64,000 nucleotides of DNA from a virus. Its lineage: Duplodnaviria; Heunggongvirae; Uroviricota; Caudoviricetes. The notes under the pieces are model-generated. The model did not search any database. It was not told where the DNA came from and was given only the letters and a program-made list of their open reading frames with translations. Every line of letters starts with the position of its first letter. The first letter of the stretch is position 1. Positions 313-59,719 of the stretch are shown piece after piece. The stretch lies in IMG/VR virus record IMGVR_UViG_3300032167_000002, positions 152,286 to 216,285 of that record; one strand, given 5' to 3'. The translations under genes and the position numbers were made by a program.

Positions 313-344
313 TATATTATAACAAATTTAATTTAAAAAATCAA
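313..344 (-). promoter_or_regulatory. Stereotyped sigma-70 promoter for the leftmost partial gene
   Basis: + strand tatatattataacaaatttaatttaaaaaatcaa. Confidence 0.55.
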
Positions 345-838
345 CTAATTCTGTCATATTGCCAGAACTGATAAGTTAAGTCGTTATATGTTAGTAGCTG
401 TCCGCACGCAGCAGGCGCCCACTCTTCCGATTCATCTAGATTCGGAAAATAAGTATCAACATTATCGTGGTCTTTATAAATTTTTGTCACATAAACACGG
501 TCACAAACAGAAAGGAATTCTTGGTATATTGAGCCACCGCCAATAATAAACCATTCTTCATCATCATCAGACAAAGAAACTCGTACTTTAGCTTCATCCA
601 TTGGAATGCTAAAAGTCATGTTTCCAAGAGGACCTCTTGGCTATCTGGAGATAACAATATTTAGTCTATCTTTAAGTGGCTTTTGGGGTAATGAATCCCA
701 GGTTTTTCTTCCCATCACTACAACATGGCCAGTAGTGAGTGCCTTGAAATACTTCAAATCTTCTGGAATATGTTCCAATAGGTCTCCATTATAACCAATT
801 CCCCAATTATTATCAACAGCAACAATTGCAGAAATCAT
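341..838 (-). CDS. folA: Dihydrofolate reductase with a single in-frame TAG at 641-643
   Basis: Track ORFs 641..838 (MISAIVAVDNNWGIGYNGDLLEHIP...NIVISR) and 341..619 (...FIIGGGSIYQEFL...) are in the same frame (both codon tops congruent to 1 mod 3). They are separated only by TAG (+ strand cta at 641-643). The TAG aligns with Q in E. coli DHFR NIILSSQPG. The true stop is TGA at 341. Confidence 0.8.
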
Positions 839-839
839 T

Positions 840-1745
840 TTAAATTCCCAACTCCAATTTCAATTGTGGCTTCATAGGTTCATAATTCTCCATAGTGAAG
901 TCATCAATTGTCATTTCAAAAAAGTTAGTTGCGTTTGGATTCAATACGAGCATTGGCTTGCGTTGCTTTTTCCATTCTTCGGGGTCTGACTGGAATTTCT
1001 CCCAATCAGCGTTAGATTTTTCATCAAAGCGACGAAGCATTTCATCAGCAGCCTCAAGATGACGGTCATAAATCTGCTCATTAGCAACAACGTGAGTAAA
1101 AACGCCGGGCTGATAACCAGTATGACGAGCAATCATCATTAGTAATGCAGCATATTGAATTTCATTAATTCCACCGGGGCCAGAAGCAGTAAGCATATCA
1201 CCACTACGCTGAACAAGCATCATATCCAGGTACTCGCCACGAACATTCCAAATAGTAAGGAACGCACATGGAGCTAAGCCAGGAGTCTCATGCAAGTCAG
1301 TTTCTTGCCATAGTGAAACAATCTTGCGGCGACCATATGGGTCATTTTTAATATCTTCAATCAAATTATTGATTAAATCATAGCGGTCTACGGTTGCACC
1401 ATATCGTTGTCCGATAGTGCCATCGCCAATATCCCATTCATCCCACCAGGTAACTCCACGCTCATGCATCTCTTTGATGTTATTGGTTGGATGCTGATAA
1501 ATCGTGAAAATTTCTCTAATACCAGTTTTCCAAGCCTGGGGTCTTAGAGTGCAAATGGGGAAATTACCTCTACTCAAATCATAAGTTCTAAAAGTATGAT
1601 TTACAGAGTAGGTGTGTGCGGGAGTGCCGTCCGCATAATGAGGGCGGGGATTTTCATCCTTATATCCGTATTCTTTGATTTCCTTAATCATTGAATACAT
1701 ATACTGGTCAGCATTAGAAATAATTTTCATATTCTCAATCCTCAT
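840..1745 (-). CDS. thyA: Thymidylate synthase family protein (ThyA or dNMP hydroxymethylase-like)
   Basis: TS-fold motifs LAPCAFLTIWNV and LDMMLVQRSGDMLTASGPG. TAA stop at 840. Adjacent to DHFR. Confidence 0.8.
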   Translation of the reverse strand: MRIENMKIISNADQYMYSMIKEIKEYGYKDENPRPHYADGTPAHTYSVNHTFRTYDLSRGNFPICTLRPQAWKTGIREIFTIYQHPTNNIKEMHERGVTWWDEWDIGDGTIGQRYGATVDRYDLINNLIEDIKNDPYGRRKIVSLWQETDLHETPGLAPCAFLTIWNVRGEYLDMMLVQRSGDMLTASGPGGINEIQYAALLMMIARHTGYQPGVFTHVVANEQIYDRHLEAADEMLRRFDEKSNADWEKFQSDPEEWKKQRKPMLVLNPNATNFFEMTIDDFTMENYEPMKPQLKLELGI

Positions 1746-2007
1746 TTGACAAACTATATCCAGTTAATTTACAATCAATGTAATTTTGAACAAAAACTTC
1801 CAGTTCATCAATCATTACATCACCTTCGTACTCGCCATTAAAGAGCTGACTATAACTGATAAATTCAATACCAGTAATGCCATATGCGTGAGCTTTTGCT
1901 CTCATGGCATGTGGATTCATACAGGCAATTGCGGAATTAGTTTCCTTTGCCAAAAGCATCAATCTACTTGTCTTGCCGGAACTACGGCTATCAATAATAC
2001 GATACAT
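1735..2007 (-). CDS. Hypothetical small protein with a P-loop-like SSGKTS motif
   Basis: 90-aa track ORF. TGA stop at 1735. Confidence 0.35.
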   Translation of the reverse strand: MYRIIDSRSSGKTSRLMLLAKETNSAIACMNPHAMRAKAHAYGITGIEFISYSQLFNGEYEGDVMIDELEVFVQNYIDCKLTGYSLSNED

Positions 2008-2020
2008 AAATTAACTCCTT

Positions 2021-3013
2021 TTATTTAATACTATATCCAAACTCTTTTGCTTTAAAATAATCTTGCCAGTAATCTTCTCTCTCGTCCAGTCTGGAACGGT
2101 CGCACTCTTCAACAACCTCGAAAGTGAAGTTCTCGGGTCCGGCCGCAATCATTGCAGGATATAATTTATTACGAGTGGGTGCGTCTGCACCTACACCTCG
2201 TTTAATATGCTATTTCCAGCGGTCTGCTAAATTGGCAGCCTAACCAACATAACATTTTCCAGAAGAGATTTCAGTAATTTTATAAATTCCAGTATGAACA
2301 CCAGAACCAATAACTCTACCAATCATATCTGTCGTTGGTTTTTCATAATAGCATTTCCAAATAACCTTATTTAAAGGTTCTTTATCACGCAAATAAGGTT
2401 CTACCTCACGCAGAAGCTCAATTTCGTGGAGGTCTGCGGCAGAAAGCTAAATGCGATAGTAGTCTTGTTGGTCTTTCATTTCTTCTGCTCTCTTGGCTGC
2501 GGCAACTGCGGCATCGTTTGTAGCACGCATAATAGCCACATTTCCTTCAAGAGCTTTATACTATTCCATCAAGCCAGCTACGGTTTCTTGATACTATACT
2601 TCAAAAGAAGCGACATTCTTTTGATATTTCTATGCTTCAAGCTCCAAAGAGCGAGCCAGATTTTCTTGAGCGACTTCCATTTTTGAACTATAAAATAAAT
2701 CTGCGGCTTCTTGAGCCTGCTTTTCCATAGCTGTAATACTACTATTTAATGTGTTAATCTATTCAATGGTTGAGTCCTTTTGGAGCAACAACCTACTATT
2801 TTCTTCTGTTAGTCGTTTAGTTTCAGCTTCAAGCCATATGCGGCCCTCTTCGGCTAAACGATTCTACTCCTAAATTCTTTCGTTCTCTTTGGCAGTCTGC
2901 GCATCCAACTCCAGCGCCGCGTGAATGCGGGGACGCAGAATGCGATATACAACATATCCCGTAATAAGGGACGACAAGATGAACGAAATTAGAAAAATAA
3001 GTAATTCCACCAT
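2021..3013 (-). CDS. Membrane-anchored coiled-coil protein with a C-terminal GIY-YIG nuclease domain; 9 in-frame TAG codons
   Basis: Manual translation of the minus strand gives one 331-codon frame from ATG (3013) to TAA (2021). N-terminal transmembrane helix MVELLIFLISFILSSLITGYVVY, then about 180 aa of coiled coil, then GIYKITEISSGKCYVG[TAG]AANLADRWK[TAG]HIKRG...YWQDYF. TAGs at + strand cta 2210-12, 2240-42, 2447-49, 2561-63, 2594-96, 2630-32, 2759-61, 2864-66, 2870-72. The first aligns with Q or S of the YIG(Q/S) motif. No standard-code ORF of 60 aa or more exists here. Confidence 0.7.
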
Positions 3014-3026
3014 ATGGAAGAAAAAT

Positions 3027-3054
3027 GGGGTAAGATATTTAATATCTTACCCCT
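3027..3054 (-). terminator. Rho-independent terminator for the 3070..3345 transcript
   Basis: Minus-strand GGGGTAAGATATT/AAATATCTTACCCC perfect hairpin followed by ATTTTTCTT. Confidence 0.65.
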
Positions 3055-3069
3055 TAGTATATGTCAAAA

Positions 3070-58427: not shown

Positions 58428-58445
58428 TTTCTTTATCTTACATAT

Positions 58446-58476
58446 ATATTATATCATATTTTTTTTATAAAATCAA
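58446..58476 (-). promoter_or_regulatory. Stereotyped sigma-70 promoter feeding the long noncoding stretch 58430-57240
   Basis: + strand tatatattatatcatattttttttataaaatcaa. Confidence 0.55.
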
Positions 58477-58478
58477 GT

Positions 58479-58838
58479 TTATTTCATAAACCCAACTTTA
58501 TCGTGCATGGGAGCAAAGGTTTTGATATTCTTATGCGTCATAACGCCCAAGAGAAAATCATTGCCGTCAACCTCTTTGATATAAATACGAGAGGTATCAA
58601 CAGTTACTGCGGAACGACCTTTTGGACGCGTCAACAACTTTGCAGAATGTTCGAGGCGTTTCATATCAATAGTATTCAATTCTAATCGACCTTGGCTACC
58701 AATGATAACAAATAAGGGTAAACCATCTTGGAGAAGTGGCTTAGCATCAGCGATCTTACCACACCAATTCATATGATATTCATCGTGAATATCAGTGATA
58801 ATCAAATGAGTTTTGATTGAAATTTCTTCCATATGCAC
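58479..58838 (-). CDS. Hypothetical protein
   Basis: 119-aa track ORF. Confidence 0.3.
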   Translation of the reverse strand: MHMEEISIKTHLIITDIHDEYHMNWCGKIADAKPLLQDGLPLFVIIGSQGRLELNTIDMKRLEHSAKLLTRPKGRSAVTVDTSRIYIKEVDGNDFLLGVMTHKNIKTFAPMHDKVGFMK

Positions 58839-58841
58839 ACC

Positions 58842-59024
58842 TCACTTGAATGAGTCAAAGAAATCCAGTATGTCTTGATTATCCTCTCTCGTATTGACAT
58901 CTTCGCTACGAGGAGCGGGCTTGGATTTACGATATGGATTCTTCTCTCCCCAACAACTGGCAAGATGTTTCACAATATCACTTTCTTTTTCAAATTCCCG
59001 CAAACAAATAGGACAAATAAACAT
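58842..59024 (-). CDS. Small zinc-ribbon protein
   Basis: CPIC...LASC. Confidence 0.3.
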   Translation of the reverse strand: MFICPICLREFEKESDIVKHLASCWGEKNPYRKSKPAPRSEDVNTREDNQDILDFFDSFK

Positions 59025-59381
59025 TTGAATTTCTCCTTTGACTTTATATAAATATTATATCATATTTTTTTATAAAAGTCAAAAAAGATTTTTGGTGGAG
59101 AGTCATTGTATCCCGTTGCCTCTCCATCCGGTCGCTCGATCACATTTCGGTTTTTGGTCTGGTTGACCGCAAACCAGCCTCATGTGTTATTACACCAAAG
59201 GTCCGTCGCGCGCACCGCACCACTCATTATAGGATTGCTACTTCTAAGCCCACCTTTGAGGTTTTCAGAGATTTACCTCTTGGTTCCGTCCAAGAGCACT
59301 CTTACTTATGGTAACTCATAGGTTCGACGTCTTTTCGCATTTCTGGGACAGGAGCCGATTAGGGACGTAACGCCTTAGCCC

Positions 59382-59457
59382 ACTATGAGTTTGGCTGGGG
59401 GTAAAGGACTTGAACCTTTAACTTTCAGAGTCAGAATCTGACGCTCTGCCAATTGAA
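59382..59457 (-). tRNA. tRNA-Gln (CTG)
   Basis: TGGGGGT TA GTTC AATTGGC AGAGC G TCAGA TTCTGAC TCTGA AAGTT AAAGG TTCAAGT CCTTT ACCCCCA G CCA, with U1-A72 and G73. Confidence 0.75.
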
Positions 59458-59473
59458 CTAACCCCCAATATTT

Positions 59474-59719
59474 TTATAATAAATATTCATCAATAGAAAT
59501 ACCCTTATTTCTTTCTAAAAAATGAAATTCTCGATGACAATTAGCACATAAAATAACACATTTTTGCATCTCTTGGGCAATAGCTTCTTGTGTTCTATGA
59601 TTTCTAATCATTTGAGCAATATCATATTCTTTTTCATCGGGGTTTCGATGATGAAAATCTAATGCTTCAATGCATTTATTATAGCCACATTTCTAACAAC
59701 CACCAAAAGAAAATTTCAT
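59474..59719 (-). CDS. HNH endonuclease-like small protein with an in-frame TAG at 59693-95
   Basis: MKFSFGGC[TAG]KCGYNKCIEALDFHHRNPDEK...VILCANCHREFHFLERNKG..., a CxxC...HH...CxxCH HNH motif. TAA at 59474. Confidence 0.5.

Follow-up and report, generated by a model that had tools for sequence, protein, structure and literature searches.

The window analysed here comprises 64,000 nucleotides (positions 152,286 to 216,285) of the IMG/VR record IMGVR_UViG_3300032167_000002 and stems from a large (approximately 200 kb), uncultured, tRNA-rich phage of the Caudoviricetes, in whose genes the amber codon TAG is recoded to a sense codon. Protein family profiles run across in-frame TAG codons, none of the genes called in the window terminates at TAG, and the reading frame beyond TAG is kept in related phages; together, these observations establish TAG as a sense codon. 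We regard it as very probable that TAG never functions as a terminator in this phage but is read as glutamine, that two tandem, phage-encoded tRNA(CUA) genes decode it, and that an enzyme of the host presumably charges these tRNAs. An earlier reading of the bare sequence (the original prediction) had proposed that TAG is recoded, most likely to glutamine; the suppressor tRNAs, termed SupA and SupB, supply a mechanism that was absent from that proposal.

TAG as a sense codon

All real genes of the window lie on the minus strand (Table 1). The TAG coordinates of the original prediction are plus-strand positions of CTA, and each of the listed sites indeed reads TAG on the minus strand, including nine in the gene for a GIY-YIG protein (2210, 2240, 2447, 2561, 2594, 2630, 2759, 2864 and 2870). 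A simple codon-model gene caller of our own, trained on long open reading frames (ORFs), was run under four codes. Coding density and model score were highest with TAG as sense (0.744 and 4272), followed by code 11 (0.720 and 4178), code 4 (0.692 and 3856) and TAA as sense (0.674 and 3499), and thus re-calling the genes bears out the predicted recoding. With TAG as sense, 77 minus-strand genes stop at TAA (55) or TGA (22) and in no case at TAG, an outcome with a probability of 3e-4 were TAG to make up 10% of the stops. Only five genes end with TAG under code 11 (641, 15478, 16673, 16995 and 19616), and in each of them the frame stays open beyond the TAG. TAG is absent from the genes for ligase, GyrA, GyrB, a lysin of 777 amino acids (aa), a major-vault-protein (MVP)-like protein and an SPFH (flotillin) protein. 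The original prediction, according to which the stops are TAA or TGA and the large housekeeping genes are free of TAG, holds on both counts.

Table 1. TAG-containing genes, tRNA genes and a promoter-like site considered in the text
Feature	Position	Strand	Details
Dihydrofolate reductase, 165 aa	341..838	-	TAG 641-643, codon 66
GIY-YIG protein, 330 aa	2021..3013	-	Nine TAGs; transmembrane segment, coiled coil, C-terminal GIY-YIG nuclease domain
PIN-PhoH protein, 416 aa	15337..16587	-	TAG 15478-15480, codon 370, in GD..TQ.D motif
Small membrane protein, 84 aa	16571..16825	-	TAG 16673
142-aa protein, function unknown	16869..17297	-	TAG 16995
Metallophosphoesterase, 237 aa	19490..20203	-	TAG 19616, at junction with 41-aa Cys-rich C-terminal module
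141-aa protein, Cys-rich N-terminus	42223..42648	-	TAG 42598, codon 17
Candidate 76-aa ORF, weakly supported	45703..45933	-	TAG 45817
88-aa ORF, moderate-to-weak support	54068..54334	-	TAG 54311, codon 8; directly upstream of the suppressor tRNAs
HNH endonuclease, 134 aa	59474..59878	-	TAGs 59693 and 59729; between two tRNA-Gln genes
Suppressor tRNA SupB, CUA	53742..53816	-	ARAGORN; Rfam tRNA 50.1 bits; cloverleaf fold
Suppressor tRNA SupA, CUA	53817..53891	-	ARAGORN; Rfam tRNA 48.7 bits; cloverleaf, position 1 unpaired
Promoter-like site, TTGACT-17-TATAAT with upstream TG	54043..54071	-	Consensus scan, 11/12 matches; putative function
tRNA-Gln (CUG), comparator	59392..59467	-	U1-A72, G73; canonical
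tRNA-Gln (UUG), comparator	60056..60131	-	U1-A72, G73; canonical
Phage tRNA-Trp, comparator			A1-U72, G73
Phage tRNA-Glu, comparator			G1-C72, A73

Profile searches with the read-through products, proposed along with the recoding, yielded Pfam or PHROG matches that span TAG in dihydrofolate reductase (DHFR), PhoH, GIY-YIG and HNH proteins. The Pfam profile DHFR_1 is matched at positions 1-159/159 by residues 1-163 (E=1.6e-43) across the TAG, and the Pfam PhoH match (8-198/205) likewise runs across the TAG of the PIN-PhoH protein. In the GIY-YIG protein, whose PHROG match is a homing endonuclease, the Pfam GIY-YIG match spans two TAGs, and the HNH endonuclease matches PHROG 2255 (E=9.5e-36, residues 2-126) across both of its TAGs.

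The window proteins were aligned by tblastn with approximately 160 related loci, 2.7 Mb in total, which came from IMG/VR and further assemblies. Within the homologue alignments, in-frame stops are TAG in 425 cases, TAA in 36 and TGA in 12, and the TAA and TGA cases are poorly aligned positions. The base following an in-frame TAG is distributed as after CAA or CAG, and a special codon context was not seen. As a separate observation, two relatives with homologues of the window segment 24978-25484 (L050 and L066) each harbour an in-frame TGA opposite a tryptophan of the window, which could reflect nonsense mutation or indicate that part of the clade recodes TGA.

Several of the smaller genes illustrate how the frame is kept. 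The TAG of the small membrane protein and the frame downstream are present in L001 (84% identity), and the alignment with L003 runs beyond the site. The TAG at 42598 and the N-terminus of the 141-aa protein are kept in the divergent strain L162, and a homologue in L009 (63% identity) aligns from residue 3. The metallophosphoesterase, which was missing from the list of the original prediction, matches Pfam Metallophos_2 and PHROG 547. Its extension, ending in YKRDAPDGGYYG, is kept after an identical TAG in L056 (43% identity) and is also conserved in L043, to the end of the sequence fetched from that locus. In other relatives the site is a TGA gene end, and the window contains no in-frame start codon after TAG 19616. 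The claim that the frame continues sensibly past each TAG thus stands for most genes, but it is unverified at 45817 and weakly supported at 54311. No homologue was found of the candidate ORF around 45817, which is backed by ORF continuity and by one ENA call made with code 15; this call reads through TAG (76 aa), and the others stop there (38 aa). The ORF containing TAG 54311 has a weak homologue in L101, aligned from Met1 onwards, and the ENA calls give 88 aa or 52 aa. Independently of these sites, the 45.7-46.4 kb segment of the window is replaced in L162 by a gene (839-2944) with four in-frame TAGs, which codes for a 701-aa protein with Flg_new (Listeria-Bacteroides repeat) domains.

Over the shared ranges, the window shows no mismatch to ENA ERZ27248370, ERZ27248306 and ERZ27248436 and to JGI 3300024303, which are four independent assemblies of different samples. 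Sequencing error, a caveat attached to the original prediction, is therefore excluded as a source of the TAGs. The predicted splitting and truncation of genes by standard-code callers does occur in public data: on identical DNA, JGI splits DHFR into 65 and 92 aa, some ENA contigs read through TAG (DHFR 165 aa, GIY-YIG 330 aa, HNH 134 aa), and others are truncated at TAG.

Glutamine and the suppressor tRNAs

Comparison with the related loci indicates that TAG almost certainly means glutamine, which is its best-supported reading. The TAG sites were collapsed into a set of unique sites with a local identity of at least 60%. At 11 of these 36 sites the window has TAG too, at 12 it has glutamine, and the 13 others are distributed over 11 residues. 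The TAGs of relatives thus fall on a glutamine of the window at 12 of 25 unique sites, compared to a background of 3.2% (p ~4e-12), and tryptophan is never found opposite TAG at unique, well-aligned sites.

The same meaning emerges from individual genes. At the position of the PhoH TAG all 11 well-aligned relatives possess glutamine (CAG in six, CAA in five), as does the GD.TQ.D motif of PDB entry 3b85; with TAG read as glutamine, the surrounding window sequence is IIDGDCKT-Q-VDDIHFSGSNNGMR. In two further relatives, TAG occupies other PhoH positions, at which all the rest have glutamine. TAG 16995 aligns with glutamine (CAG or CAA) in L001, L003 and L005, and the TAG of a YorH-like gene just beyond the window corresponds to glutamine in the closest relative. 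For the GIY-YIG protein, glutamine at the TAG positions of database homologues was rejected as circular evidence, since the gene caller of that collection had already translated TAG as glutamine, and a codon-level comparison was used instead. In a codon alignment of four orthologues (with 9, 12, 18 and 4 TAGs), TAG alternates with CAA and CAG in conserved columns; from column 100 onwards, 36 codons are not TAG, and 17 of these encode glutamine. These results corroborate glutamine as the predicted meaning. The more specific proposal that TAGs occupy conserved glutamine positions holds for PhoH and is weak for DHFR, where the column is variable, with S, N, Q or S among solved structures and S in most relatives; the DHFR site was discarded as evidence for glutamine.

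According to ARAGORN the window contains 24 tRNA genes; every one of them is on the minus strand, and two bear the anticodon CUA. The tRNA array extends beyond the window (41 tRNAs in L149), and the related loci contain 18 further tRNA(CUA) genes and no suppressors with the anticodons UUA or UCA. In SupA, U1 faces U72 unpaired, position 73 is G, CCA is encoded and the anticodon loop is CUCUAAC. SupB features an unpaired U1 opposite C72, G73, an encoded CCA and the anticodon loop CUCUAAA, and its 5' acceptor strand, UGGGGGU, is identical in both phage tRNA-Gln genes. The two genes abut, the first base of SupB directly following the CCA of SupA, and an RNase P cut at the 5' end of SupB would free the mature 3' end of SupA. 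A promoter-like site is located approximately 150 nt upstream of SupA. No ribozymes were found beside the suppressors; when positions 53300-54400 were scanned by E-value, nothing appeared apart from the tRNAs and a YrlA-like match below the threshold. The latter (Y-RNA, RF02553; 53921-53990, minus strand, 33.5 bits, E=3e-5) lies directly upstream of SupA, and a DUF2828 protein is encoded approximately 7 kb away (46506-47456, minus strand), a link between the two being speculative.

The identity elements of E. coli glutaminyl-tRNA synthetase (GlnRS) are a weak 1:72 pair, G73 and U35, and the E. coli amber suppressors supE (from tRNA-Gln) and su7 (from tRNA-Trp) are charged by this enzyme. SupA and SupB share with supE and su7 the CUA anticodon, and thereby U35, as well as G73 and a 1:72 pair that is weak or missing. 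The acceptor ends of both phage suppressors resemble tRNA-Gln in sequence, and the nearest non-suppressor tRNAs of SupA in the family are Gln-UUG. In a further likeness to the E. coli suppressors, SupB looks like a tRNA whose anticodon arm is of the Trp type and whose acceptor stem is of the Gln type. In contrast to the E. coli suppressors, SupA and SupB are phage genes, form a tandem pair and belong to a genome that gave up TAG as a terminator. Due to their U1, non-paired 1:72, G73 and U35, SupA and SupB are presumably charged with glutamine by a glutamine-pathway enzyme of the host, through either GlnRS or GluRS together with GatCAB, and the unpaired 1:72 may offset the replacement of G36 by A36. 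L089, a relative 93% identical on the window protein 56793-57200, likewise has a pair of adjoining tRNA(CUA) genes (13330-13501); the second of these tRNAs comprises 97 nt, contains a long insertion or variable arm, and has an acceptor stem of the Gln type (U1-A72, G73).

Uneven use of TAG and alternative explanations

The window contains 19 in-frame TAGs in approximately 16,000 codons, which correspond to 3.8% of its Gln-type codons and reside in 10 of 78 genes. They are concentrated in nuclease genes: the GIY-YIG gene has 9 TAGs and 10 CAA/CAG codons (Fisher p=1.4e-9), and the HNH endonuclease gene 2 TAGs and 4 CAA (Fisher p=0.019). In the related loci, 24 of 28 GIY-YIG homologues, most of which lie just upstream of thyA, contain 12-51 TAGs per 1000 codons, compared to 0-2.7 in the rest of the locus. 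The positions vary among lineages, and hence it is the number of TAGs rather than their location that is conserved, as judged from the alignments. No group I intron was detected near the GIY-YIG gene (Rfam, gathering threshold, positions 1-50000), and therefore this is a free-standing gene. Furthermore, the lysin homologues of relatives contain as many as 4 TAGs, their tail-fibre-like genes contain 3-5, and 57 of 155 related loci are devoid of TAG. Fourteen near-identical copies of the consensus promoter TTGATTTTTATAAAAAAATATGATATAAT are found on the minus strand of the window from 21181 to 61003, and none in 1-21180. The share of TAG amounts to 14/191 in the promoter-free 1-21 kb as opposed to 5/311 in the promoter-rich 21-64 kb (p=0.003).

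If TAG is decoded by the two tRNA(CUA) genes that lie head to tail within the array, the products of TAG-containing genes would stay incomplete until the suppressors accumulate, and TAG would impose a translational delay or gate. Such a role would explain why TAG is rare overall yet piled up in the GIY-YIG (nine) and HNH (two) nuclease genes, and likewise its accumulation in the lysin and tail-fibre-like genes of relatives.

A number of observations weigh against this scheme of glutamine insertion by gating suppressors. The assignment of a residue to TAG rests on sequence comparison. The anticodon arm of SupB is like that of the phage tRNA-Trp, and the D arm of SupA is like those of Trp and Glu tRNAs. 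Overall similarity to 960 tRNAs of the family was tried as a guide to identity and rejected as not discriminating (all approximately 70-75%), and for this reason we relied on acceptor-end features and alignment statistics. Neither a release factor nor an aminoacyl-tRNA synthetase is among the window proteins scanned. The lysin of the window itself carries no TAG, and the regional difference in TAG use disappears once the GIY-YIG gene is excluded (p=0.34). Finally, no recognised virion structural gene, in which a bias towards late genes would show, was found in the window.

The strongest rival, to which we accord a little less than an even chance and which would refine the glutamine reading, holds that TAG is only partly reassigned: it would terminate early in infection through the host release factor RF1 and be suppressed later, giving rise to truncated as well as full-length products, and both the short phosphoesterase and its long Cys-rich form would be functional. 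TAG 19616 indeed sits exactly where relatives have their TGA end, and the module after it is conserved; moreover, TAG is rare, its density in the GIY-YIG gene is kept while the positions turn over, and the suppressors are situated in a region rich in consensus promoters. However, most TAGs interrupt essential domains (DHFR at codon 66, PhoH within its motif, GIY-YIG in its core), so that a product cut short there would serve no purpose, and TAG is the sole terminator of no gene.

A related proposal, which we put forward tentatively and consider rather doubtful, is that TAG represents a dosage-tuned translational gate more than a reassigned codon. Selection would then maintain a high TAG number in the GIY-YIG and HNH genes and in the lysin and tail-fibre genes of relatives while positions turn over, the junction TAG 19616 would yield two phosphoesterase isoforms according to the suppressor level, and the unpaired 1:72 of the tandem suppressors would be tuned to capture the Gln-charging machinery of the host despite the altered anticodon. 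Programmed read-through in a standard-code genome was considered separately and rejected, since it requires that the same codon be an ordinary terminator elsewhere and TAG terminates no window gene; among all TAGs only that at 19616 fits a junction pattern, the others being inside domains.

That TAG encodes a residue other than glutamine (Trp, Glu, Lys or Tyr), or that the two suppressors insert different residues, seems improbable. This possibility is suggested by SupB, whose anticodon loop and stem are like those of the phage tRNA-Trp and whose anticodon differs from it only at position 35, and by TAGs opposite K, E or Y in some divergent relatives. Yet glutamine is enriched approximately 15-fold at aligned sites and tryptophan never occurs, the non-glutamine partners are scattered over 11 residues, as variable columns would give, and both suppressors combine U1 with G73, which matches neither A1-U72 (Trp) nor G1-C72/A73 (Glu).

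Pyrrolysine is extremely unlikely: ARAGORN labels the suppressors tRNA-Pyl, but it does so for any CUA anticodon, and the tRNAs form ordinary cloverleaves with GG in the D-loop, GTTCGA in the T-loop and 5-bp anticodon stems, the aligned residues are Gln rather than Lys-like, and pyl genes were not seen among the annotated proteins. The notion that the TAGs stem from faulty sequencing or assembly, or mark pseudogenes in a standard-code genome, is effectively refuted, for although standard-code callers (JGI, some ENA contigs) split or truncate the TAG genes, the independent assemblies agree without mismatch, well-aligned in-frame interruptions of conserved genes are TAG and not TAA or TGA, TAG positions are kept in diverged strains, no gene is TAG-terminated, and suppressor tRNA genes are present.

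The phage lineage and its place among recoded phages

The window belongs to a lineage of more than 100 IMG/VR contigs. Related contigs reach approximately 200 kb, and phages of the lineage range from approximately 130 to 200 kb. A megablast search with a 6.2-kb query revealed no close relative among 50,697 GenBank phage records, and the tblastn matches among GenBank phages were limited to phAss-1 and distant phages of Bacillota (30-39% identity). A Bacillota bacterium is the probable host, to judge solely from the best GenBank phage matches and from genes resembling SPbeta Yor genes. Beyond the start of the window, the same phage harbours the YorH-like gene with one TAG and a RecJ gene with two. 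The downstream flank provides only more replication genes (a replicative helicase, RecJ and two large replication-type ORFs), and the structural module is not reached. No terminase gene is present in the window or the fetched flanks.

Apart from the recoded genes, the window encodes several structured RNAs. A ROOL RNA (57682-58295, minus strand; Rfam RF03087, 327.8 bits, model 1-574/574) is located inside the tRNA array, and one of the conserved promoter copies (58444-58476) lies just upstream of it. A complete drum RNA (62889-62999, minus strand; RF02958, 78.1 bits) is found among tRNA genes, and a partial match to OLE RNA (51749-51836, minus strand; RF01071, 53.4 bits) exceeds the gathering score only slightly and is confined to model positions 437-594. 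The tRNA-Gly(UCC) at 61602-61675 (minus strand) is atypical, with an odd acceptor stem and no encoded CCA, unlike the other tRNA genes of the window, and may be a degenerate copy. The fourteen promoter copies (e.g., 21181-21213, 27237-27269, 53697-53729 and 60971-61003) are strong, sigma-A-type elements with an extended -10 (TTGATTTTTATAAAAAAATATGATATAATATAT), of which shuffled sequences would be expected to contain none. The element also exists in the relative L001 and probably marks the early transcription units.

Among the proteins, an 838-aa product (30734-33250, minus strand) features MVP shoulder and repeat domains (PF11978, E=2e-23; PF17795), and a 502-aa SPFH/Band-7 (flotillin-like) protein (17479-18987, minus strand) has one of the highest codon-model scores of the window. 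A cluster at 24169-30641 (minus strand) codes for NAD-related proteins, namely NAD synthase, NAMPT/NAPRTase-family and SIR2-family proteins, as well as phosphoribosyltransferase-domain and isochorismatase-family (nicotinamidase-like) proteins; we take this cluster to resemble phage NAD+ reconstitution pathways. The genes at 33993-39430 (minus strand) encode an RNA-ligase-family protein, an RNase T-like exonuclease, a full sigma-70 factor (regions 1.2-4) and a Thg1-family (tRNA-His guanylyltransferase) protein, and adjoin the phage tRNA set of more than 40 genes.

TAG recoding of this kind is already known in gut phages. In crAss-like phages, the reassignment of TAG to glutamine has been shown by proteomics (Peters et al., PMC9523058), and Borges et al. 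(bioRxiv 10.1101/2021.08.26.457843) report preferential recoding of lysis genes, of a tail gene and of an intron endonuclease. Like other code 15 phages (crAss-like, Lak and the "gemstone" clades of Borges et al.), the present lineage has in-frame TAGs that align with glutamine and its own tRNA(CUA), uses the recoded codon incompletely and with a gene bias, towards a nuclease gene and, in relatives, apparently towards lysis and tail genes, and keeps its replication genes mostly free of TAG. It differs from these phages in lacking a close relative in the GenBank phage set, in carrying TAGs also in genes of nucleotide metabolism and replication (single ones in DHFR and PhoH and, beyond the window, TAGs in the RecJ and YorH-like genes), in possessing two abutting suppressors that are each mismatched at 1:72, and in that the recoded nuclease is a free-standing protein rather than an intron endonuclease.

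Two further comparisons concern the Agate clade and the phage phAss-1. Borges et al. (bioRxiv 10.1101/2021.08.26.457843) describe the Agate clade, with genomes of 154 +/- 27 kb, as a mixture of phages that use the standard code and phages that recode TGA or TAG. The present lineage shares with it a similar genome size, the variable presence of TAG (none in 57 of 155 loci), an endonuclease as the most recoded gene, and in two relatives TGA opposite tryptophan; membership in the clade is defined by terminase phylogeny, and the window has no terminase. The gut phage phAss-1 (OQ749652, proposed genus Phassvirus; approximately 136 kb, host predicted among Clostridia) also recodes TAG and carries several suppressor tRNA genes. 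It is the best GenBank phage match to a 295-aa protein of the window, but at only 30.5% identity, and is not among the top matches of the window's PhoH, which makes it a distant relative at most. Overall, the data fit the published picture, in which phages of standard-code hosts turn TAG into a glutamine codon by means of their own suppressor tRNAs and concentrate the recoded codon in genes that ought to be expressed late.

The main consequence of the recoding concerns annotation, as at least ten genes of this window are split or cut short when called with the standard code, and public pipelines handle identical DNA inconsistently, with genes split at JGI and ENA contigs called with either code. 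The established view of stop codon recoding in phages is left unchanged. The present work adds an abundant, uncharacterised lineage to the known code-15 phages and offers testable cases, namely a gene with 20- to 40-fold TAG enrichment across most of the clade, the TAG at the domain junction of the phosphoesterase, and the acceptor ends of a tandem suppressor pair.

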